This document shows positions 6,183-59,603 of a stretch of 64,000 bases of DNA, piece after piece; the stretch's first letter is position 1; the number at the start of each line of letters is the position of its first letter. Both the position numbers and the translations under genes were made by a program. The stretch lies in contig JAVCCW010000010.1 in assembly GCA_030765235.1 (NCBI GenBank), positions 94,907 through 158,906 on the forward strand. The letters are read 5' to 3'. The notes under the pieces were generated by a model, which was given only the letters and a program-made list of their open reading frames with translations, had not been told where the DNA came from and did not search any database. Source of the DNA: Candidatus Gorgyraea atricola (GTDB taxonomy: Bacteria > Omnitrophota > Gorgyraeia > Gorgyraeales > Gorgyraeaceae).

Positions 6183-8353
6183 TCTTTCTCGGGTCCATCA
6201 GGATATTCCACGCGCGTGTGAAATATTCCTGTGAGTATATGCATGAAAACTTCTGCGATTCTTTCCAGATTCTTGAGCGTCAGATCGCATTCGTCCAACT
6301 GACCGTCAATAAATTTATTATTTATGATCTTTTTCACCAGGCCTTTTATCCTGGACGGTGTAGGATTATCCAGTGCACGCGATCCTGCCTCAACTGAATC
6401 AGCCAGAAGCACGCATGCTGCTTCCTTTGTCTGTGGTTTTGGTCCAGGATACCTGAAAGACTGTTCTCCTACATCCTCGTCTGTCACCTTTTCCAGTGCC
6501 CTCTTAAAGAAATAAAAAACAAGGCCTGTGCCATGATGCTGCCTGATGATATCAATGATCTTTTTATTGAGCTTGTGTTTCTGTGCCAACTCCACGCCAT
6601 TTTTAACATGGTTGGTGATTATGAGACTGCTCATGGTGGGCGAAAGTTTATCGTGCGCTGAACCCTCGCTGGATTGATTCTCACTAAAATATGATGCCTT
6701 TTCGATCTTGCCTATGTCGTGAAAATATGAACTGACCCTGGCAAGAAGCGGATTAGCGCCTATTGCCTCACAGGCCGCCTCTGCAAGATTTCCAACAACA
6801 AGGCTGTGATGATAAGTGCCTGGCGCCTTCATTACCATCTCTTTTAAAAGCGGATGGTTTAGATCCGCTAACTCGAGAAGGCTTATATCTGTCGTGATCT
6901 TAAAGATGTTTTCAAATACAGGTAGTATGCCTGTCACAATAACCGCAGACATTATGCCATTTGTAAGCCCAAAAAGCGCCTGTGTGATGTATGTATTAAA
7001 ATCCAACCCTCTTACAAGACCCATACCGATAAGATAACTCACGTTCGCAAAACCAACACACAGGCCAGCTGTCATGACCTGTGACCTGCGCCTTACGCCC
7101 TTCATCGCAAATATACCGACCATGCCTCCGACAAGAGAAACGCCTGCGATATCCAGAATATTTCCAGCGATCATGCCAACTAGTATACTTAAAAAACAAG
7201 TAGCTATCATTGCCATGCGGCTGTTTATTAAGATGGCTATAAGCATTGAAGCCACTGCCACAGGCACGAGATTACTTGGCCAGGGAGACATCACTATGAT
7301 CTTTGCCGCTACTAAGATCAGAAAAGACACTACGGAAAGCAAAACCAGCTCTTTATTTGCTGCTATAAAAATAGGTTCGTAAAATTTTACATAGAGCACT
7401 ACGATAAGCATGAAAAGCCCGACCAGTAGCAGTATCCCGAAGAGCCCTCCTATTTTCATTGCCATGGACTCATTCTGCTCTATGCCTTTTAACTTCACTA
7501 TATGATCCTTGCCAATACGCTCACCCTTGTTCAATATCATCTCATTCTTCTTTACCTCTATTGTATTGCGAATAGGGTTTATTTTCTGGGCAAGTTCATC
7601 TTTTTCTGCTGCTGTCTTTTCTTCATCATATATTATATTTGTGCTCAAAATGGCTTTCATAAAATCATTGGCAGCTGAACGCTCTTTTCTGCCTCTTATG
7701 CCTGAAGAAAAATCCTCCATGTTTTCCTTTAGATCTCCCAGCGTAAAAAAATCTTCTACCCATGCCGTGCTTTCAGTGTCCTCGATTTTATCTAGCACCT
7801 TTATTCTTTTTATCTCGTTCTCCACGAGCATAGAACGCTCTGAAGCAGAGATTATGCCTTTTAACATAAGGCGCTCTATTGCATCCTTTACTGAGTCGTA
7901 AAACATCTCGTGATCCTTTAGTTCCAGGATGCTAGTTGTAAGTGCCTCTGAGATATTATAATCAGCTGAAACTGCTGCGACCTTTGTCTTTTTTTCTTCA
8001 TCCGCCAAATCAGGTTCTGTCTTTAAAAGCGAGACTGAGTCCACGATAGCCTTGGCCTTATTCAAGACATTCTGCTGCACTCCAGCGTCAAAGATATAAA
8101 TGGGCAATACTGAATCCGCGGCCTTTTTTCTTGCGATATCCGTAGCCCTGGTATTTACCTCTCCTTTTATATTAAAATCATATGGCGCGTAAATAGAGCT
8201 CAGCGCTATGTCGCCCTCGCGAAACTCTGCCTTAAAAAGTCCCCTGTCCCACTGTATGATCGTCACCATTAAAAGACACGTTAATACCGCGATGATGGTA
8301 TGGGATAATGCATGTGAATTACTTTTCTTCTTACTATTAAGGATTTTTTTCAT
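6179..8353 (-). CDS. 7TM-receptor HD-domain phosphohydrolase (PgpH-like)
   Basis: 724 aa; central block of 7 TM helices followed by HD/HDIG domain (HDIGK); conserved phoH/pgpH-ybeY-dgkA neighbourhood. Confidence 0.75.
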   Translation of the reverse strand: MKKILNSKKKSNSHALSHTIIAVLTCLLMVTIIQWDRGLFKAEFREGDIALSSIYAPYDFNIKGEVNTRATDIARKKAADSVLPIYIFDAGVQQNVLNKAKAIVDSVSLLKTEPDLADEEKKTKVAAVSADYNISEALTTSILELKDHEMFYDSVKDAIERLMLKGIISASERSMLVENEIKRIKVLDKIEDTESTAWVEDFFTLGDLKENMEDFSSGIRGRKERSAANDFMKAILSTNIIYDEEKTAAEKDELAQKINPIRNTIEVKKNEMILNKGERIGKDHIVKLKGIEQNESMAMKIGGLFGILLLVGLFMLIVVLYVKFYEPIFIAANKELVLLSVVSFLILVAAKIIVMSPWPSNLVPVAVASMLIAILINSRMAMIATCFLSILVGMIAGNILDIAGVSLVGGMVGIFAMKGVRRRSQVMTAGLCVGFANVSYLIGMGLVRGLDFNTYITQALFGLTNGIMSAVIVTGILPVFENIFKITTDISLLELADLNHPLLKEMVMKAPGTYHHSLVVGNLAEAACEAIGANPLLARVSSYFHDIGKIEKASYFSENQSSEGSAHDKLSPTMSSLIITNHVKNGVELAQKHKLNKKIIDIIRQHHGTGLVFYFFKRALEKVTDEDVGEQSFRYPGPKPQTKEAACVLLADSVEAGSRALDNPTPSRIKGLVKKIINNKFIDGQLDECDLTLKNLERIAEVFMHILTGIFHTRVEYPDGPEKE

Positions 8354-8356
8354 AAG

Positions 8357-8971
8357 TTATTCAGGAATTACCAATTCCTGCCCTGGCTTGATATTATCAG
8401 GACTTTCTAAAATATTTTTGTTGGCTTCGAAAATCTTCTTCCATTTCTTTGTGGTGCCATATGCCTTGTCTGATATCTTTTGAAGTGTATCTCCCTTCTC
8501 TACTGTGTATATCCTTTCCCCTGTCTCTACTTTTCCTTCTCCTATAGTGCCACTACCTTTTTCCTTTCCATATTTATTATCTGAGCTTGCAGACGGTTGG
8601 TAAATTACTTGCGGTTTACTTGATCTGGTAAAAGGGAACAGTCCTTTTCTTCCTGTTTCTTTCTTTGCAGGAGCAGTTGCCTCTTTAGGAGATTCTTTCC
8701 CTGCCAAATACCCTCTGTTTCCTTCAATCGCCACATCTTTACGCGCTGATTTCTTATCTCTCCTTGAAGGAAGTTCTATCTCAAGATTGTACATCTTTTT
8801 GGTCTTTTTTCTTTCCACCTCAGGCATGTCTGAAACCTTACCCCCGATTATACCTCTGTTACCATTAAGTTCTTGATCAACCCTATCTGCCTCGTAAGAC
8901 GTTACTCTTGCCACACAGCCAGACACCACTAAAGCTGCAAAAAGTAAACTGTAAGCTATAAACTTTTTCAT
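8357..8971 (-). CDS. LysM-domain lipoprotein
   Basis: Lipoprotein signal LVVSGC; C-terminal Lys[28 protein letters not shown]. Confidence 0.7.
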
Positions 8972-12012: not shown

Positions 12013-12060
12013 GTGGAGGTTACGAAGGTTACGGAAGGTTTCGCATTTGTACGGCTAACC
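12013..12060. repeat. Family B half copy (tgtggaggttacgaaggttacggaaggtttcg)
   Basis: One arm only. Confidence 0.7.
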
Positions 12061-16893: not shown

Positions 16894-17018
16894 AAAATCC
16901 CAAATCCCAATAATACCAATACTACCAAATAAATCCCAATTTCAAAATCCCAAACATGTGTTGGGGTTTGGGATTTTGGATTTATTTGGGATTTGGTAGT
17001 ATTTGGATTTGGGATTTA
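16894..17018. repeat. Family A palindromic repeat copy
   Basis: Near-identical to 586-705 and 18210-18334. Confidence 0.9.
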
Positions 17019-18209: not shown

Positions 18210-18334
18210 AAAATCCCAAATCCCAATAATACCAATACTACCAAATAAATCCCAATTTCAAAATCCCAAACATGTGTTGGGATTTGGGATTTTGGATTTA
18301 TTTGGGATTTGGTAGTATTTGGATTTTGGATTTT
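18210..18334. repeat. Family A palindromic repeat copy
   Basis: Near-identical to 16894-17018. Confidence 0.9.
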
Positions 18335-22312: not shown

Positions 22313-22420
22313 AGCGAAGGTTTCGTAAGGTTGTGTGAGGTTTCGTTAGGTTGCGTAAGGTTACATTATTGCAACTTCACGAAACATTACGAAACTTTAC
22401 GCAACTTCACGCAACCTCCA
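22313..22420. repeat. Family B palindromic repeat copy
   Basis: gcgaaggtttcgtaaggtt...cgcaacttcacgcaacctcc. Confidence 0.85.
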
Positions 22421-22472: not shown

Positions 22473-22512
22473 AAAAACCCCGTTCCAAATTCTTAATTAA
22501 GAATTTGGAACG
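22473..22512 (-). terminator. groEL rho-independent terminator (perfect palindrome ccccgttccaaattcttaa/ttaagaatttggaacgggg + T-run)
   Basis: Perfect 19-bp stems followed by ttttt on the minus strand; preceded by a second hairpin at 22546-22577 (tgtaggtgaccctt/aagggtcacctaca). Confidence 0.7.
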
Positions 22513-22592
22513 GGGCACGGCCCGCGAGTTTGCGCGAGTTATCCACATTGTAGGTGACCCTTAAGGGTCACCTACAATTAGTTGTTTGCGTA

Positions 22593-36057: not shown

Positions 36058-36187
36058 ACGTGGAGGTTACGTAAAGTTACGGAAGGTTTCGGAATGTTGC
36101 GTAAGGTTGTATTAAGAGCGTTGGAATCCATCGCTCTTGTAACCTTCGGTAACCTTCTCTAACATTCCGTAACCTTCGTAACCTCCA
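36058..36187. repeat. Family B palindromic repeat copy
   Basis: tggaggttacgtaaagttacggaagg...ccttcgtaacctcca. Confidence 0.9.
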
Positions 36188-36195
36188 TGTAGTAT

Positions 36196-41350: not shown

Positions 41351-41375
41351 GTTATCCTATTTCAATAGCGCCTCT

Positions 41376-41446
41376 AGTGTCAGGTTTTAGGTGTCAAGTG
41401 TCAAGGAGCTAAAATCCCTGACACCTTTCACCTGACACTTGACACC
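41376..41446. repeat. Family C palindromic repeat copy
   Basis: agtgtcaggttttaggtgtcaagtgtcaagg...cctgacacttgacacc. Confidence 0.85.
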
Positions 41447-44026: not shown

Positions 44027-44253
44027 CCTACACCCCCTTTTTTCTGTTAACTTTACACTTAAACAAAGCTCCTCTTCTGTAGGCCAGGTTTAAACCTGGC
44101 CTACTTTACGCTGAAGCAAAGCTCAAGTGTAAAGTTATTATATAATCCTAACCCTATAAAGTAAAGTAAATTATCCGCCACCTCCTTTCTACATATAGTA
44201 GACACATCGAGGAGCTAATTTTCTTTCAAAAAAGATTGCTTCTATAATTCATA

Positions 44254-45507
44254 TTGCATATAATAAGACCTATGGAAATATCCTCGCATGTAATATGCAT
44301 TGGCAATGAAATTATGCTTGGCCATATTAATAACACAAATGCCCAGCATATTTCAGAGAAACTCTCCTCTATTGGCATAAAGACTGCAAAGCATCTGTCC
44401 ATTCCTGACGTTCCAAAGGTTATTATTAATTCAATAAAAAATAGTCTAGCCGATGCTAATATCGTTATAGTTACAGGTGGTCTTGGTCCTACTGTGGATG
44501 ACCTGACGCTTGACTGCATCGGAAAGGCACTGGATAGAAAACTCATCTTTAAAGACAGGGTTGCAAACCATATAAGGCAGCATTTTAAAAATCGTAAGTT
44601 AAAGATGCCAAAAAATAACCTGCGCCAGGCACTTATACCTGAAGGGGCAACCCCAATACTAAACAATATAGGCAGCGCCCCAGGCCTTATAATCCAGACA
44701 AAAGGAAAAGTCCTTATTGCATTACCAGGTGTGCCTTTTGAAATGCATGCCATGATAAAAGATACTGTGCTGGGCTTTCTTAAAAAGAGATTCTCTCCAG
44801 GCAGGCTAATAAAATCCCGCGTAATAAAAATAACAGGGCTTCCAGAGTCAAAGGTGAATGAAAAGATCGAGGACATATTGAAGCTGGGTGGCAATGTCCA
44901 GATGGGTATCTACCCTCACCCCGAAGAGATCACAGTAAAGATAACTGTGACTGACAAAAAGGCTGACGCTACAATAAAAAAGATCGAGAGAAAGATAAAA
45001 TCACGGCTGGGAAACTACATATTCGGCTATGATGAAGAGAAATTAGAAGAAGTTGTTGGCAAGCTGCTCTTAAAAAAGAAAAAAACCTTAGCAGTCGCAG
45101 AATCCTGCACAGCCGGACTTTTGGCGAGTAGAATCACAGACGTTTCTGGAAGTTCAAGGTATTTCAAGATGGGTGTAGTTACTTACAGTAATCAAGCTAA
45201 GAATAAACTTCTATATGTGCCTAAAGATACGATAAAACAACACGGCGCTGTCTCCAAACAAGTAGCAAGCGCAATGGCCAAAAACATGCGGCTATTAGCT
45301 GACGCAAGCATAGGAATCGGTATAAGCGGCATTGCAGGTCCAACCGGCGGCACCAAGAAAAAACCAGTAGGCCTAGTCTACATCGCGCTCTCAACAAAGA
45401 AAAAGACCATTTGCAAAGAATTCCGCTTCCTGGGCCAGCGAAATATCATAAAGTTTAAAGCCACTCAAGCAGCCCTTAACCTGGTGAGGCTTCATGGGCT
45501 TGTGTAA
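44254..45507 (+). CDS. cinA: competence/damage-inducible protein CinA (MoCF-binding + PncC deamidase domains)
   Basis: 417 aa; N-terminal VICIGNEIMLGHINNTNAQ..VIVTGGLGPTVDD. Confidence 0.9.
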   Translation: MHIIRPMEISSHVICIGNEIMLGHINNTNAQHISEKLSSIGIKTAKHLSIPDVPKVIINSIKNSLADANIVIVTGGLGPTVDDLTLDCIGKALDRKLIFKDRVANHIRQHFKNRKLKMPKNNLRQALIPEGATPILNNIGSAPGLIIQTKGKVLIALPGVPFEMHAMIKDTVLGFLKKRFSPGRLIKSRVIKITGLPESKVNEKIEDILKLGGNVQMGIYPHPEEITVKITVTDKKADATIKKIERKIKSRLGNYIFGYDEEKLEEVVGKLLLKKKKTLAVAESCTAGLLASRITDVSGSSRYFKMGVVTYSNQAKNKLLYVPKDTIKQHGAVSKQVASAMAKNMRLLADASIGIGISGIAGPTGGTKKKPVGLVYIALSTKKKTICKEFRFLGQRNIIKFKATQAALNLVRLHGLV

Positions 45508-45538
45508 AGTGTCAAGTGTCAGGTGTCAAGGAGGATAA

Positions 45539-45908
45539 AGTGAGAAATTACAGGTTTGATTTCGAGAAATTAGATGTGTATGAGAAAACGTTAGATTTTG
45601 CAAATAAGGTTTTTAATATTACCAAGAAATTTGATAGAGAAATTCAATATTCACTTGGAGACCAATTTCGTAGAGCCTCTCTATCTATATGTAATAATAT
45701 CGCTGAGGGCAGCGGTAGACCCAGTCAAAACGCAAAAAGACAATTTTACGGCTACGCCTTAGATTCAGCCAGAGAATGTATACCAATGATAACGTTAAGC
45801 CAAATGCAGAATCAAATTACTAAACAAGATGAAGAAGCATTAAGAGACGAATGTATAAGTATCTGTAATATGACTGGCAAGCTAAAAATGTCAACAAAGC
45901 ATCCCTGA
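45539..45908 (+). CDS. four-helix-bundle protein (23S-rRNA-intervening-sequence protein family)
   Basis: ..YRFDFEKLDVYEKTLDF..SICNNIAEGSGR.. pattern. Start placed at GTG 45539 after AAGGAGG (ORF track starts at an upstream GTG inside the repeat). Gene bracketed by inverted family C copies. Confidence 0.7.
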
Positions 45909-45944
45909 CGCATTGACACTTAACACCTGACACCTGACACTAAC

Positions 45945-46502
45945 ATGCAAACTATCCGAGCATTTGTTGCAGTTGAAATCGACCAGCCAAATAAACAAAA
46001 GCTTTCCCAAGTCATCTCTACTCTCAAGCAAGCAAACGCAGACGTAAAATGGGTCAATAAAATCCAGATGCACCTGACACTAAAGTTTCTGGGAAATATT
46101 GAAGAAAATCGCATCAAAGAAATCTCAGACACACTTAAGTCTATTGCAGATAACTTTAGCGCCTTCAACATCCACCTCTCTAAAATCGGCGCATTCCCAA
46201 ACATGCATAAACCAAGAGTCATCTGGCTTGGAATTGACAAGGGCGCACAAGACTTAAAAAACCTAGCTTCTCAGCTCGAAAAACTCGGCCCCAAAGAAGA
46301 AAAGCGTGAGTATAAAGCTCATCTCACGCTAGGCAGGGTCAAATCCTTAAAAAACATCTCTCAACTAACAAAACTTATAAACGAAACCCCCTTTCAATCC
46401 CAAGGCAACATCCCCATCACCAAACTAATCCTCTTCCAAAGCACCCTCACGCCTAAAGGTGCAATCTACTCACCCCTGACAACATTAGCTTTAAAACAAT
46501 AA
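45945..46502 (+). CDS. thpR: RNA 2',3'-cyclic phosphodiesterase (2H family, ThpR/LigT)
   Basis: Two H-x-T-x motifs (HLTLKFLG, HLTLGRV). Confidence 0.85.
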   Translation: MQTIRAFVAVEIDQPNKQKLSQVISTLKQANADVKWVNKIQMHLTLKFLGNIEENRIKEISDTLKSIADNFSAFNIHLSKIGAFPNMHKPRVIWLGIDKGAQDLKNLASQLEKLGPKEEKREYKAHLTLGRVKSLKNISQLTKLINETPFQSQGNIPITKLILFQSTLTPKGAIYSPLTTLALKQ

Positions 46503-49421: not shown

Positions 49422-50150
49422 TTAAGGTTGCCTAATGCCGTCTTTTGTGATGATTAGGGTCTTTTTCTCTCCTTTTTTACCAGGGGTGCCGAGGTTTTTT
49501 CCGTTGAAGGTCAGGGTTACGCCACCAGCATTGCCCAGCTCCAGATCTATCTGCTTTTTTGCTTCCCAACTATCAGAAGCGCCCTTCTTTAATATGCCTC
49601 TAAACAAGAGCTCTTTGCCGCTGGTGACCTGGACCCACGTGTTGTAACGCGCTGCAAGTTCGACCTTAAAACTCTCTGCTACCGCCGCAACCCCGGAGGT
49701 TGCCGTGCTCGCAACCTCCGGGGTTGCGACAACGGCTTGCCCCTTATGTTTAGTGAAAAGATTCCGTATAAACCTTCCCACCTGCACAAAGCCAAAGGCA
49801 AGCAAATACACGCTGAAAATAGTCACAAGCCCGAGTCCGATCTGGCGCTTGTGTTTTAAGAACCAGTCACTTTTGGACTTTTCAGGTTTTAAGGCTAACT
49901 GAGATCCGGGCTTTTTTTCTCCACTTGACAGAAATTCTTTTACTATTCTTTCTTCAAGCGCCCCCAGGAACTGCGAATAGGATTTAATAAAGCCTCTTGC
50001 GTAAAAAGGGTCCGCTGTCTTTAAGATGCTATCTTCTTCTATTGTAGAGATTATTTTCTTAGGTATGCGCGTTCTTTCTGAGACATCTTCTATGGAGAGC
50101 TGCCTTGTTTCGCGGATCTTCTTGAGTGTTTTTCCAAGTGATTCAGGCAT
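49422..50150 (-). CDS. rodZ: RodZ-like cytoskeleton protein (HTH + TM + C-terminal DUF4115)
   Basis: N-terminal XRE HTH LKKIRETRQLSIEDVSERTRIP; single TM; C-terminal domain. Contains GC-rich palindrome at 49687-49727. Confidence 0.7.
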   Translation of the reverse strand: MPESLGKTLKKIRETRQLSIEDVSERTRIPKKIISTIEEDSILKTADPFYARGFIKSYSQFLGALEERIVKEFLSSGEKKPGSQLALKPEKSKSDWFLKHKRQIGLGLVTIFSVYLLAFGFVQVGRFIRNLFTKHKGQAVVATPEVASTATSGVAAVAESFKVELAARYNTWVQVTSGKELLFRGILKKGASDSWEAKKQIDLELGNAGGVTLTFNGKNLGTPGKKGEKKTLIITKDGIRQP

Positions 50151-50151
50151 A

Positions 50152-50236
50152 ATCGTTTAGCCCGTTAGCCCGTTGCCCGTTAGCCCGTTGACCCATTAAC
50201 GGGCAAACGGGCTAAACGGGCAACGGGCTAAACGGA
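50152..50236. repeat. Family D palindromic repeat (cccgttagcccgttgcccgtt.../...aacgggcaacgggctaaacgg)
   Basis: Half copy at 52413-52452. Confidence 0.85.
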
Positions 50237-53202: not shown

Positions 53203-53272
53203 GAGGTTACGAAGGTTATGGAAGGTTATGTAACGTTCCATAACATTACGTAACATTCCATAACCTCCACGT
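53203..53272. repeat. Family B palindromic repeat copy (short)
   Basis: aagaggttacgaaggttatggaagg...cattccataacctcc. Confidence 0.85.
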
Positions 53273-55358: not shown

Positions 55359-55381
55359 TGAAGACTCCCTTTCTTAGTTGT

Positions 55382-55450
55382 AGCTTTCAGCCCTCAACTC
55401 TCAGCTCTCAGCCTTAAAAGCTGAAAGCTGACAGCTGATCGCTGAAAGCT
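55382..55450. repeat. Family E palindromic repeat (agctttcagccctcaactctcagc.../...gctgacagctgatcgctgaaagct)
   Basis: Imperfect inverted repeat between pnp and rpsO. Confidence 0.8.
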
Positions 55451-55524
55451 ATCGTTATAATAAAAGCGGATCTGCCGACCCTAATTACCTGCTTAGCGAC
55501 CCAGGTCGTTAAATCCGCCCTTCA

Positions 55525-55821: not shown

Positions 55822-56772
55822 CTATTTTTTACCCCTGCGGTCAAGCAATTTCTTCACGACCAACATATATCCCAATATCTTTAACTCATATAATACTATA
55901 AAAGGTAGATTCAATAATATGCCACGTAATGAATCATTCTTTTTTATGCATAAGTATCTATTCTTAATATACCTTCTCTTCAACTCCTCAGAAATACGGT
56001 GGACTAGGGGTTGGGGTGTCCTGTGAGTGGGAGGATCCACACCGGGCGGAGGGGCCCACGAACAGGATACCCCGACCTCTAGTCCACCCGCAGTTCCCCC
56101 TCTCACATGATACGCTAGTGCCTTCGGGTTATAATATGCTTTCCAATCCTTCTTCTGTGCTCTCCAACATAAGTCTAGATCTTCGTAATACATGTCAAAT
56201 CTCTCGTCAAAATATCCATATTTATCCCTTACATTCTTCAGCATGCTTTTTCTTAAAAAAGCGCATGCGCCGCTGGCTCCAAATACATATCCTGGCTCAT
56301 CATACTGCCCCTTGTCTACCTTTCCATAGCCTCTCTCGACTGGCTTTCTATTCTTGCCTAAAAATAATCCTGTTGAATCTATGGTCTTTTTATCCATTCT
56401 TAATATTTTTCCGCTTACCATGCCGATTCGCGTATCAAGACCTATCGCCAATAGAACCTGCCTCAGATAATCTTTGTCCAACACGCAGTCGTTATTCAGG
56501 CATAAGACAAAATTCCCTTTTGACGCATCAATGCCCTGATTCTGCGCTTTACAAAAAAGAAGGTTGCTGGTATTTCTGATCAATTGAACATCCGAATAAT
56601 ACATGGCTACCATCTCGATACTGCCATCGGTAGAGGCATTATCTACAACAATAGTCTCAATATCCTGAAAATTCTGTCCCCTTACGGAGTCCAGACACTG
56701 CCTCAACAAATCTTTCCTGTTGTAATTGACAATTATTATTGATATCATAGATTTAATTATATCATGAATCAA
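55822..56772 (-). CDS. GT2 glycosyltransferase carrying an in-frame 93-nt GC-rich palindromic insertion
   Basis: N-terminal IIIVNYNRKDLL..VVDNASTDGS; C-terminal ..RRYIKNRYLCIKKNDSLRGILLNLPF.. is normal GT2 tail. Between them lies a foreign 31-aa segment AGGLEVGVSCSWAPPPGVDPPTHRTPQPLVH. Confidence 0.8.
   Translation of the reverse strand: MIHDIIKSMISIIIVNYNRKDLLRQCLDSVRGQNFQDIETIVVDNASTDGSIEMVAMYYSDVQLIRNTSNLLFCKAQNQGIDASKGNFVLCLNNDCVLDKDYLRQVLLAIGLDTRIGMVSGKILRMDKKTIDSTGLFLGKNRKPVERGYGKVDKGQYDEPGYVFGASGACAFLRKSMLKNVRDKYGYFDERFDMYYEDLDLCWRAQKKDWKAYYNPKALAYHVRGGTAGGLEVGVSCSWAPPPGVDPPTHRTPQPLVHRISEELKRRYIKNRYLCIKKNDSLRGILLNLPFIVLYELKILGYMLVVKKLLDRRGKK
55997..56089. repeat. GC-rich palindromic element inside GT2 CDS (arms cggtggactaggggttggggtgtcctgt / acaggataccccgacctctagtccaccc)
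   Basis: 93 nt = 31 codons; locally very GC-rich against an AT-rich host gene; reads through in frame. Confidence 0.85.
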
Positions 56773-57945
56773 ACAGAAACCAAACCCTTATCACCCCTCA
56801 TATTTATTCCCTTATTATCCCTTATCTTCATCCGGCCTTTCATCTCTGGCCTTGCATACCCGGCCTTTGAGATGTTTTATGAAAACATCTTGATATTCCT
56901 TGCTATCATGATCTTATTCATGGAAAGATCCAGATTTAAACTGTATCCTAAAAATTTCAGTAACTTCCCTGTAATATTCCTATTATTTGCCTATGCTATT
57001 TCAACTATATTCTCGATCAACATACAAAACTCTATTAGAGAAACGCTTAAATTCATCAGTTTCTTTGCCATATTCTTTATGGTTTCCCAATCTGATGAAA
57101 AACAAAAGAAACTGCTGCTAAAGACCATTGTCATAGCTGCTTCAATAATAAGTCTGTATTCAATATACCAGTACTTCTGGGGATATGGACGCACACTAGA
57201 TTATCTACAAAAAACCAACAGCGATTTTCTCTCCACCTCTTCCTATGCCCGCGACATCCTGCTCTCAAAACGCGCAATAGGAACATTTCCCTCTCCGAAT
57301 ATCTTAGCTGGATACTTGATAATAATGTTTTTTCTCGCAATGCACTTACAGCGTCGCATTTCGCTAGTTCTAATCACTGCTGCGTTAATCCTCACTAAAT
57401 CCATGGGCGCGTGGTTAAGTCTTATTGCTGCACTGATCTACCTCGGTAACTTCGTAAGTTACCCAAAGGGTAACTTACGAAGTTACCGAGGTAAGTTAAT
57501 GGCAGTATTAATCGTAGCTATACTATGTTTTATCCTCGTGAATCGCTGGGAACGCCTGATGAACATGGAAAACCCGCAAAATTCCATTACCCAGCGCCTA
57601 AACTACTGGCGCACAGCCATAGCCATAATAAAAGATCAGGCTATTTTTGGAGTCGGACCTGGTAATTTTCAAGAAGTCTTCTTGGGGCATAAGGTAGGCT
57701 TAGGCACAGATACAAGATACGCGCATAACATATTTCTTCACATATGGTCAGAAATAGGTATCTTAGGTCTTGTAGGAGTCTTTTACCTTATTATTAATTT
57801 TTTCAGAAAAGCCAGATCTCAATCCAGCTATAGATTTATACTGTGCGGCGGGCTTGTGTTTATCCTGCATAATCTCATAGATAATACCTTTTTCATGCCT
57901 CAAGCTGCACTCTTCTGGTGGATATTACTGGCTTCTAAGGAATAG
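56764..57945 (+). CDS. O-antigen ligase/polymerase family membrane protein (Wzy_C domain)
   Basis: 393 aa polytopic membrane protein. Contains in-frame perfect palindrome at 57441-57491. Confidence 0.7.
   Translation: MNQTETKPLSPLIFIPLLSLIFIRPFISGLAYPAFEMFYENILIFLAIMILFMERSRFKLYPKNFSNFPVIFLLFAYAISTIFSINIQNSIRETLKFISFFAIFFMVSQSDEKQKKLLLKTIVIAASIISLYSIYQYFWGYGRTLDYLQKTNSDFLSTSSYARDILLSKRAIGTFPSPNILAGYLIIMFFLAMHLQRRISLVLITAALILTKSMGAWLSLIAALIYLGNFVSYPKGNLRSYRGKLMAVLIVAILCFILVNRWERLMNMENPQNSITQRLNYWRTAIAIIKDQAIFGVGPGNFQEVFLGHKVGLGTDTRYAHNIFLHIWSEIGILGLVGVFYLIINFFRKARSQSSYRFILCGGLVFILHNLIDNTFFMPQAALFWWILLASKE
57441..57491. repeat. Perfect 24-bp-arm palindrome inside O-antigen ligase CDS (cctcggtaacttcgtaagttaccc-aaa-gggtaacttacgaagttaccgagg)
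   Basis: 51 nt = 17 codons encoding LGNFVSYPKGNLRSYRG; words ttacgaag/cttcgtaa relate it to family B. Confidence 0.85.
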
Positions 57946-59603
57946 ACCCTATCCACGGCCATAAGTGTCGATGATCTATGAGAAACAGTAATCAGGCTTA
58001 TTTCTCCAAGGAGCTGTTTTATATTCAATAATATCTTTTCCTCGCTGGCTGAATCCACAGAAGACATTGCCTCATCAAGGATCAGGATCCTGGGCCTTTT
58101 AATTATTGCACGGGCAATGGCGATCCTTTGCTTTTGTCCTTCTGATATCTTGCAGGCATTTTCACCTATAACCGTTTCATATCCATCAGGAAGATTATTT
58201 ATAAAATCATCGGCCAAAGAATGCCTGGCGGCCTCACATATCTCAGCCCTACTCGCGTTCTTTTTTCCATAGGCAATATTGTTCGCTACAGTATCGTTGA
58301 ACAAAAAAGGTTCCTGCAATGCCATGCCGATCTGTTCTTTTAGGCTCCCCATCTTCATGTCCTTGATATTGACACCATCAATAAGGATCTCTCCCTGCCA
58401 TGGATCATAAAGCCTTACGATTAAATTCAATAATGTGGTCTTGCCAGCGCCTGAAGGCGCAAAAAAACCAATATGCTTATTGCCTTCTATTGAAAAACTT
58501 AGATCCTTTAGGATAGGCTTGCCCGGCATATATCCAAAGCTAACGTTTTTAAATTGTATATTGCCTTGACTGAAAACAATGTTTCTTGCGCCTTTGTCCT
58601 CAATGACCATCCCTTCTTCATCTAAAATAGCAGCCACCCTTTGACAGGAGATAAGCCCCAATACAGCTGTTTGAAAAAATCCTACAAAGCTATTCTGCAT
58701 AGCTACTAGCTGCCCCAGGTAGACCAATATCGCTGCAAGACTTCCAAGACTCATTTCTCCCCTGATAACCATATATCCGCCGTAAAAACTAATAAGGCCT
58801 ATAATGATCTTACTCCCCGCATTCGCGGCAAAAGCGCCAAAGATATCCAGCCTTACACTGCTAAGCTCTATCTTTATATTGTCCATCAACTGCCTCAGGT
58901 ATTTCTTCGTCTCGACATTTTCTTTATTAAATACCTTAATAAGAGGGATGTGAGAAAAAAGCTCCTGAATGGATTTAAAAATATTCTGAGAATTCCCGAT
59001 CAATCTTTCCCAGACCTTCCTTCTTTTATTGATAAAATAATATGACGGTAAATAGAGGAAGGGTGTGAGAAAAAAAGCGAGGACTGCAATCCTCCAGTTA
59101 AGATGCGATATAATAATAAGGATAAGCACAAGTTTAGGAAAAAGGGCTATGGCCCGAGGAAGCGTAGTCGCAACAAGATCTTTTACCCTGCTAATATCGT
59201 GATCGATCTTATAAAGATGCTCCCCTGTGCTTTTATTTTGAAACCAGCTAAGCGGAAGGATCTCTATCTTTTTAAAAACCTTCTTGTTTAGATCAAATTT
59301 TATTCTTAATTTTACATATCTCTCTAAATATTGCCCGAACCCGTTTATAATTCCTATAACAATAAAAACTGCCCCGCCTATGATTACCAGAATGACAAAG
59401 GTCTTTAAATCCTTATTTCCTATTGCCTTATCAACGACTAATTTTGTCAAATACGGATTGATCAGCCCCAGCAATGCCCCAAAACCACTCAGGAAGATAA
59501 TTGCTGCCCATTTTTCTCTATAAGGCAAGAGTAATTTTATAAATCTTAAGAAAAGCGCCTGCTGTTTCTTGTCTAATCTTATTTTATGCCGGGAAAAATT
59601 CAT
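57900..59603 (-). CDS. ABC exporter, fused permease + ATPase (no C39 peptidase domain)
   Basis: 567 aa; 6 TM helices then Walker A GAGKTTL, LSGGQRQR, Walker B ILDEA. Confidence 0.85.
   Translation of the reverse strand: MNFSRHKIRLDKKQQALFLRFIKLLLPYREKWAAIIFLSGFGALLGLINPYLTKLVVDKAIGNKDLKTFVILVIIGGAVFIVIGIINGFGQYLERYVKLRIKFDLNKKVFKKIEILPLSWFQNKSTGEHLYKIDHDISRVKDLVATTLPRAIALFPKLVLILIIISHLNWRIAVLAFFLTPFLYLPSYYFINKRRKVWERLIGNSQNIFKSIQELFSHIPLIKVFNKENVETKKYLRQLMDNIKIELSSVRLDIFGAFAANAGSKIIIGLISFYGGYMVIRGEMSLGSLAAILVYLGQLVAMQNSFVGFFQTAVLGLISCQRVAAILDEEGMVIEDKGARNIVFSQGNIQFKNVSFGYMPGKPILKDLSFSIEGNKHIGFFAPSGAGKTTLLNLIVRLYDPWQGEILIDGVNIKDMKMGSLKEQIGMALQEPFLFNDTVANNIAYGKKNASRAEICEAARHSLADDFINNLPDGYETVIGENACKISEGQKQRIAIARAIIKRPRILILDEAMSSVDSASEEKILLNIKQLLGEISLITVSHRSSTLMAVDRVYSLEASNIHQKSAA

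Follow-up and report, generated by a model that had tools for sequence, protein, structure and literature searches.

A perfect in-frame palindrome in an O-antigen-ligase-family gene of 'Ca. Gorgyraea' belongs to a dispersed family of 51-55-nt palindromes in Omnitrophota

The hairpin at positions 57441-57491 of the window (the whole 64-kb stretch of DNA that was analysed) represents a dispersed family of 51-55-nt palindromes that a 'Ca. Gorgyraea'-related clade of Omnitrophota carries, with copies in spacers, at a gene end and, in frame, inside the coding sequences of unrelated genes. Our preferred explanation, to which we give a probability of roughly 0.65, is that these short perfect palindromes behave as selfish or neutral DNA (neutrality being assumed here), are tolerated in genes only where a stop-free frame is read and the encoded loop is permissive, are made symmetrical at the DNA level and move between lineages by recombination.

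The window letters at 57441-57491 read CCTCGGTAACTTCGTAAGTTACCC-AAA-GGGTAACTTACGAAGTTACCGAGG, which confirms the perfect palindrome (24-nt arms, AAA loop) reported by an earlier sequence-only reading of the window, and a repeat finder extends the arms to 26 nt (57439-57464 and 57468-57493, 100% complementary, 3 nt apart), the flanking TA..TA also pairing. The same reading was correct in placing the palindrome in frame inside an O-antigen ligase coding sequence, where it is translated as LGNFVSYPKGNLRSYRG (residues 227-243). The features of the locus are as follows.

56764..57945, plus strand: host gene, a Wzy_C / O-antigen-ligase-family membrane protein of 393 aa (Pfam Wzy_C, E = 1.8e-22)
57439..57464, no strand: left arm, 26 nt, encoding ..Y-LGNFVSYP at the end of a predicted TM helix (AlphaFold helix 214-231)
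57465..57467, no strand: loop AAA, the symmetry centre, in codons P234-K235 (CCA AAG) at the predicted turn between two TM helices
57468..57493, no strand: right arm, exact reverse complement of the left, encoding GNLRSYRG(K) at the start of AlphaFold helix 238-260

RNA folding of the 71-nt palindrome region gives one unbroken stem of -48 kcal/mol, compared with -13.2 +/- 2.6 for shuffled sequences (z = -13.4). A search for the 24-mer, which the sequence-only reading had proposed and which we ran on the window, returned the two arm positions only at up to 3 mismatches (0.00 expected from 100 shuffles). An internal terminator, a promoter and a known RNA family were considered and rejected: a terminator scan of 57200-57800 gave 0 terminator-like sites, with TAAGTTAATGG rather than a T-run directly after the stem, no promoter pattern fits at the palindrome, and in Rfam 15 no family reached its gathering threshold, the sub-threshold matches being generic miRNA-precursor hairpin models only (30.8 bits vs 75).

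The ligase ORF is intact, and alignment with its homologs shows that all family-invariant residues are present. A database protein with 100% identity to the ligase bears the name 'Candidatus Gorgyraea atricola' (phylum Omnitrophota). This alignment, suggested by the sequence-only reading as a check, maps the palindrome to the turn between two TM helices, where 23 of the 24 aligned homologs have a conserved native turn (..AL-FxLSYKSIKKQKL..); distant orthologs thus carry another, conserved turn, and the palindrome-encoded peptide is not conserved among them. The picture of a simple 17-codon insertion has to be revised, as the native loop has been replaced and the window ligase is only one or two residues longer than its homologs at this site (a net gain of ~1 codon). 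In the DNA, the palindrome and one further codon fill 18 codons where the palindrome-free ortholog on contig L002 has 13, and the TM segment that follows is 4 codons shorter in the window ligase than in L002. An AlphaFold model of the ligase (mean pLDDT 75.6, falling below 50 at residues 233-235) predicts a helix at 214-231, a turn at 232-237 and a helix at 238-260, so that the centre of the DNA hairpin falls at the turn of a protein helical hairpin. The turn bearing the hairpin tip is short and basic and probably cytoplasmic: every homolog has a basic turn here, and a single helix separates it from the next conserved loop, RWERL..NPQNSITQRLNYWR, which, from what is known of the Wzy_C family, we take to be periplasmic. 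A protein search with a tripled 51-column profile of four peptide variants returned 248 word-sharing candidates, none at E <= 10.

Among database homologs, only P0002 has a similar peptide at this site, and the contig that encodes it (L001) has the same gene order as the window (GT2, ligase, ABC transporter, radical SAM). The L001 ligase gene has ACCTCGGCAACCGCGTAGGTTGCCA-gaa-TGGCAACCTACGCGGTTGCCGAGGT at the corresponding codon. Its 25-nt arms are perfect and differ from those of the window at 6/24 arm positions, each of the 6 being compensated in the opposite arm, and this copy is read as LGNRVGCQNGNLRGCRG, unlike the window peptide. A third ortholog with the palindrome (L011), found by a metagenome pattern scan, has arms identical to those of the window, the AAA loop being the sole part that differs. 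The four ligase genes (window, L001, L002 and L011) are about equally diverged (73-83% nucleotide identity), with window and L011 77.6% identical overall; despite this, these two are nearly identical over one patch.

57419..57523, plus strand: patch of ~105 nt (the palindrome, ~20 nt upstream and ~30 nt downstream) nearly identical between window and L011; bounds approximate, from a codon alignment

Outside the patch the L011 ligase gene is closest to that of L002, which lacks the palindrome despite 95-100% identity with L011 upstream, and which is only 37-50% identical to L011 in the palindrome region. The local identity of window and L011, set against their overall divergence and the closeness of L011 to L002 elsewhere, indicates on sequence comparison that the palindrome-bearing segment was exchanged between lineages by homologous recombination.

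Further copies were sought with a metagenome pattern scan followed by fuzzy arm matching across all fetched loci. At least 5 of the ~11 family loci lie inside or overlap coding sequence, and in-frame copies are found in 4 or 5 unrelated genes. The agmatinase gene on contig L008 has an in-frame copy (peptide LGNLVGCQNSNLRGCRG) with two arm mismatches, which recurs, mismatches included, in an ENA contig (L020) and an NCBI contig (L021, GCA_018818505.1) and is thus present in three independent assemblies (JGI, ENA and NCBI). In L008 and L020 the adjoining maf gene ends in a copy with 26-nt perfect arms that supplies its last codons and stop, and in L013 and L014 a radical-SAM/DUF6873 gene contains an in-frame copy translated as LGNFVSCPKGNLRSYPG. 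Intergenic copies occur in L009 and L015, as does a second copy in L011, in the ligase-GT2 spacer, and L012 has a solo arm. The window-type arm is found with 0-3 differences per 24 nt at maf, radical SAM and an intergenic spacer, and a second arm type (C-type) is present in agmatinase and in intergenic DNA. The window itself holds one more copy.

49686..49728, no strand: second, diverged family copy, CGCAACCCCGGAGGTTGC-cgtgctc-GCAACCTCCGGGGTTGCG, with 18-nt perfect arms

By hand alignment its arm agrees with the C-type arm at ~19/22 positions. A RodZ-like protein (ORF 49422..50150, minus strand; Pfam HTH_25 and RodZ_C) carries this copy in frame, as part of its linker. Copy number in the source genome may be low, given only two related copies in 64 kb of it. 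A scan with the pattern GGTAACTTMSKAAGTTACC of a genome-contig collection that does not include the source genome gave only 4 unrelated chance matches. We do not claim a decayed copy at the maf end of L015, where nothing but a non-significant 7-mer is shared.

In the ligase genes of three genomes, and likewise in the agmatinase, maf and radical-SAM genes, the element invariably begins at codon position 3. The window-type (T-type) palindrome has TAA stops in both other frames and reads the same on both strands, so that one frame alone would be survivable within a gene. The RodZ copy, whose codon phase differs, has GGAG in place of the stop-making GTAG, which argues, from the sequence, that translation continues across the elements and that freedom from stops would act as a filter.

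Individual copies are present or absent among close relatives. The L013 agmatinase is 93% identical to that of L008, yet both L008 copies (agmatinase and maf) are absent from L013, just as L002 lacks the ligase copy. At maf the difference is a net insertion (8 nt in L013 vs 66 nt in L008), and at agmatinase a 53-nt element in L008 stands against 17 nt in L013 (KLKGS) and 17 nt in L015 (RPKGN). The L015 linker and the centre of the window-type element have a 12-mer in common (CCAAAGGGTAAC; ~1e-5 by chance, an estimate), and distant agmatinases, including the solved structures 3pzl and 3lhl, have at the element site a native segment of ~26 residues that has been lost in this lineage. The radical-SAM ortholog of L015 carries in the same loop a different perfect palindrome, ATTTCAAACCCGTCCGCCT-a-AGGCGGACGGGTTTGAAAT, and which palindrome or remnant occupies the GT2, radical-SAM and agmatinase sites varies from genome to genome. 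At every copy in coding sequence, either native sequence is missing or another palindrome or remnant occupies the site. No direct repeat flanks the 7 copies compared (7 junction pairs), and the compared loci include no clean empty site, which, together with the replacement at coding sites, is not the signature of simple cut-and-paste transposition. A TA target-site duplication of the IS630/mariner kind was also rejected, as the TA..TA belongs to the palindrome itself and varies between copies, the flanks at this position reading TA..TC in L001 and L008 and elsewhere CA..TC and AA..TT. A Pfam scan of ~50 window proteins, which are housekeeping proteins, found no transposase. Where the elements occur, native sequence thus tends to have been lost, and different palindromes appear to succeed one another at the same permissive sites, for which the routes may be independent insertions filtered by selection, targeting of existing palindromes or conversion seeded by centre-like sequences. 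Both 'empty' sites in L013 contain TAAA(A)GGCA, which is at most suggestive of such centre-like seeding.

When nine copies are aligned against the hairpin, 94% of the cells in its 26 pairs are paired and 12/26 pairs have changed on both sides, a level reached in 0/500 shuffles; sliding the partner lowers pairing to 25-45% of cells. The arms vary by up to 25% between copies and nearly every copy is still perfectly self-complementary, with only 1-7 nt between the arms and without any G.U-type pairs in the family hairpins. From this constant perfection of the arms, the drifting peptide and the lack of G.U-type pairs, we infer that symmetry is kept by a process acting on DNA. Each arm is also self-complementary in the window and L001 copies (GGTAACTT..AAGTTACC; GGCAACC..GGTTGCC), and we considered whether the arms are conserved mini-palindromes like REP doublets or operator half-sites. 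This four-way covariation fails in the L013, L011b and L008b copies, where arm positions 7 and 21 vary independently; the within-arm sub-hairpin is therefore not conserved.

In the reading that we prefer, copies would land, or be copied by recombination, into spacers, gene ends and coding sequence, and a copy within a gene would survive only if it had a length that keeps the frame (51 nt), were read in the stop-free frame and encoded a permissive loop. In the ligase the element would have taken the place of the native ..SYKSIKKQK.. turn, putting the hairpin tip at the helix-helix turn. The encoded peptide would not itself be under selection; what is kept would be the complementarity of the arms, one arm templating the other at the DNA level through template-switch perfection, repair of an extruded hairpin or the process that makes the copies, while palindrome-bearing alleles would pass between related lineages by homologous recombination.

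The main rival is that the hairpin is a selected cis-acting RNA or DNA structure with a function for the host, possibly as a stretch of perfect dsRNA (24-26 bp) serving RNase III-type cleavage or stability, as a pause point in translation or as a site for a palindrome-binding protein, the covariation then reflecting purifying selection on structure. The very stable fold, the strong covariation across copies and the uniform ~24-27-bp arms of several unrelated palindrome families all agree with this, and the perfect arms of three ligase orthologs that are ~22% diverged, with the peptide changing, could be explained equally well by structural selection. We nevertheless regard it as unlikely, since the contexts (a membrane ligase, cytosolic enzymes, a gene end, spacers) have nothing in common, individual copies are absent from very close relatives, G.U pairs, which RNA-level selection would tolerate, do not occur, the agmatinase copy is decaying (2 mismatches) and there is neither a terminator tail nor an Rfam match.

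The sequence-only reading had instead attached the palindrome, through the words ttacgaag / cttcgtaa and ggtaac, to a set of hairpins in the window termed family B, which have longer, imperfect arms made of ~9-10-nt TTACGRAGG-like tandem units.

~12019: family B hairpin, intergenic
~22314-22420: family B hairpin, intergenic
~36090-36190: family B hairpin, intergenic
~53206-53268: family B hairpin, intergenic

That the palindrome is a short member of this family that invaded an ORF seems to us decidedly unlikely. Words are indeed held in common (TTCGTAAG at 22322, TTACGAAG at 53207 and 12020, CCTTCGGTAACCTTC at ~36140), and 4 of the ~8 best weak local arm matches fall in B-type hairpins. However, the 8-mers are not enriched (42 elsewhere in the window vs 56 +/- 10 expected), the best local alignment of the arm with the rest of the window scores 12, within the range of shuffles (maximum 12.4 +/- 1.1), and the family B loci hold no match to the 24-nt arm within 5 mismatches; the B hairpins also stand apart in being imperfect, longer, composed of tandem units and all intergenic, whereas the true relatives of the palindrome share an architecture of perfect 24-27-nt arms. 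The proposal that one repeat system can enter ORFs with the frame intact accordingly stands for the dispersed family, which occurs in spacers and in frame in unrelated genes; its assignment to family B lacks statistical support, though a distant kinship may exist, given the B loci among the weak matches.

An origin in place, by template switching that perfected a local quasi-palindrome of the ligase gene with no repeat family involved, would suit the nearly unchanged length of the region (net +1 codon) and the resemblance of NFVSY in the left arm to the native FVLSY, and such perfecting of quasipalindromes is known (PMC6357072). It is very improbable here, because arms made locally would be specific to their locus, yet the same arms recur at unrelated loci, with 0-3/24 differences at maf, radical SAM and a spacer, and the C-type in agmatinase and intergenic DNA. 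Although the window comes from a metagenome-assembled genome and chimeric reads can yield palindromes, an assembly or amplification artefact, or a dead ligase gene, can practically be dismissed, as the ligase palindrome sits at the same codon in independent assemblies from NCBI, JGI and ENA samples, the agmatinase copy is identical down to its mismatches in contigs from all three sources and the ligase ORF is intact.

Several known systems resemble the dispersed family. Rickettsia palindromic elements (RPEs; Ogata et al., 2000/2002) are palindromic repeats found in frame within genes (PMC10969869). Both they and the Omnitrophota palindromes are dispersed, lie in frame in unrelated housekeeping genes and also in non-coding DNA, occupy permissive places and add or replace a peptide segment that is a by-product of a DNA repeat. 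RPEs, however, are ~100-150 bp, imperfect, make net peptide insertions and are confined to Rickettsia, whereas the palindromes described here are 51-55 bp, essentially perfect, replace native segments and have no known sequence relation to RPEs; as regards membership, they share the in-frame and intergenic occurrence, and length and lineage suffice to set them apart. REP sequences and REPINs (PMC3116915, PMC8266576) are likewise short hairpin repeats with several families per genome, no target-site duplication, both solo units and inverted doublets (compare the solo arm in L012) and changes that keep the hairpin, compensatory changes being common in REPIN hairpins (PMC3116915). They are imperfect palindromes with arms tens of nt apart, associated with a single-copy RAYT (Y1 HUH) gene flanked by REPs, and almost exclusively extragenic, with 14/1,067 REP 16-mers overlapping genes in SBW25 (PMC3116915); the Omnitrophota palindromes are not restricted to extragenic DNA, have no conserved REP unit within the arms and keep the arms 1-7 nt apart, and no RAYT (Y1_Tnp) gene was found by Pfam among ~50 proteins of the 64-kb window. 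MITEs (Correia, ERIC, BOX, RUP; PMC10969869) share with the palindromes small size, non-autonomy, hairpin-forming capacity and occasional in-frame fusions within genes. In MITEs, which derive from DDE transposons, terminal inverted repeats enclose an internal region, the target site is duplicated and the parent IS can be recognised, whereas here the whole element is the inverted repeat, the 7 junction pairs show no duplication and there is no known parent IS. Template-switch mutations, reported to 'universally perfect' quasipalindromes (Ripley model; Lovett laboratory, PMC6357072), let one arm template the other and so fit the copy-by-copy perfection seen here, but they are a mutational mechanism and not a repeat family, and account for the symmetry rather than the spread to unrelated loci. 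The palindromes lack defining features of RPEs, REP/REPINs and MITEs and yet behave like RPEs and REP/REPINs. Integron attC sites are imperfect palindromes with R''/L''-L'/R' boxes (RYYYAAC...GTTRRRY) and extrahelical bases, located at cassette boundaries next to intI. They were rejected as a candidate: GGYAAC/GTTRCC is unlike RYYYAAC/GTTRRRY, the arms have no bulges and the elements lie inside housekeeping genes.

The Omnitrophota literature that we searched makes no mention of palindromes or hairpin repeats. In-frame palindromic repeats, so far described mainly for Rickettsia, are now found in a distant uncultured phylum, in a shorter and essentially perfect form, and they offer a natural system for the upkeep of palindrome symmetry, the reshaping of protein loops without gene death and the movement of gene patches between populations by recombination. 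We tentatively raise the broader possibility that Gorgyraeia-type Omnitrophota carry several families of self-symmetrising perfect palindromes of ~51-55 bp that overwrite loop-coding segments, turn over at permissive sites and spread without the hallmarks of transposons, for example where short centre-like sequences seed conversion or hairpin-templated repair. If so, repeats of this class would propagate in a new way and would keep supplying variation to protein loops, possibly while also acting at the RNA level.

Related contigs contain more palindrome families of the same architecture, some of them in frame and several with arms of ~24-27 bp, examples being the following.

L018, 1104-1158: further palindrome of the same architecture
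L015, 3939-3991: further palindrome of the same architecture
Window, 44079-44104: palindrome of the GTAGNCCAGGTTT/AAACCTGGNCTAC family, intergenic

The phenomenon is thus general in the clade and not a curiosity of one gene. Odd loop peptides such as LGNFVSYPKGNLRSYRG or RPGLNLVY should, when genomes of Omnitrophota and other candidate phyla are annotated, be treated as repeat-derived and not as features of the protein family. The latter peptide comes from the GTAGNCCAGGTTT/AAACCTGGNCTAC family, which in L018 is read in frame both in a GT2 gene (RPGLNLVY) and in a ligase gene (RAGLNL).

The orthologs of the O-antigen-ligase-like protein encoded on L011, L001 and L002, three related Omnitrophota contigs, carry additional repeat-derived inserts in frame that are absent from the window ligase, so that this small membrane protein is a genome-specific mosaic of different repeat insertions. 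The relevant ligase features are as follows:

L011 122..1402, minus strand: ligase
After TM6: ortholog insert SLRGAKRRSNL
Close to the C-terminus: ortholog insert CHCE..EAIS

The adjoining glycosyltransferase gene (GT2) also contains a hairpin, and in its orthologs the same loop is occupied by different elements in different contigs:

Window 55998-56088: GC-rich hairpin of 91 nt, in frame in the GT2 gene (55822..56772, minus strand)
L001 248-287: element with 20-nt perfect arms
L011: repeat of the 'CHCE..RLLRFA..ARNDR' type
L018 7667-7692: element with 13-nt arms, coding RPGLNLVY

Owing to the 91-nt hairpin, the window GT2 is 16-22 aa longer than its ortholog in L018, a contig syntenic with the window. 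The hairpin has a folding energy of -72 kcal/mol (z = -9), and base-by-base reading showed that the three mismatches between its arms form G.U pairs on the plus strand, which is antisense to GT2; comparison with Rfam families gave no match.

Further palindromes were located in a third gene and in the spacers:

Window 49686-49728: perfect palindrome with 18-nt arms, in a RodZ-like ORF (49422..50150, minus strand)
Window 44079-44104: palindrome GTAGGCCAGGTTT / AAACCTGGCCTAC, intergenic, after recA
Window 22478-22515: perfect hairpin CCCCGTTCCAAATTCTTAA / TTAAGAATTTGGAACGGGG, intergenic

The first of these occupies the linker that joins the TM segment to the RodZ_C domain; in the L018 ortholog the linker at this site is unrelated. 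This palindrome is related to the C-type form of the one in the ligase (a form found in an agmatinase gene and in intergenic DNA), with approximately 19 of 22 arm positions agreeing in a hand alignment, and its codon phase differs from that of the ligase palindrome. The GTAGGCCAGGTTT / AAACCTGGCCTAC family is a second one crossing between spacers and coding sequences, as it occurs in L018 at 7667-7692 and 8539-8580, in frame within the GT2 and ligase genes. A copy of the CCCCGTTCCAAATTCTTAA / TTAAGAATTTGGAACGGGG family is likewise in frame in the L001 ligase (1557-1590), nested within another repeat that codes RGAKRQSNL.

Nearly all spacers downstream of minus-strand genes in the window contain a hairpin whose arms consist of 7-10-nt tandem units, the majority without a T-run; the hairpins may have a 3'-end or terminator-like role. 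The hairpin family CCAAATAAATCCCAATTTCAAAATCCCAA occurs three times in the window. The hairpin positions include:

611-675, 16925-16989 and 18241-18305
approximately 12019-12040, 22314-22420, 36090-36190 and 41373-41442
about 50154-50231, 53206-53268 and 55381-55451

The public annotation of P0001 (357 aa), a database protein identical to the window ligase, starts 36 codons downstream of the ligase ORF start (window 56764-56871). Homolog alignment supports the longer form, whose N-terminus is conserved (MxxxKSKPLSxxIF..); this form overlaps the start of the divergent GT2 ORF by 9 nt. The 3' end of the ligase ORF overlaps that of a convergent ABC-transporter ORF (57900..59603, minus strand) by 46 nt (57900-57945). 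All 2-kb bins across the window (1-64000) show a negative GC skew. Almost every gene is encoded on the minus strand; the sole plus-strand genes are the ligase and a cluster at 44254-46502.
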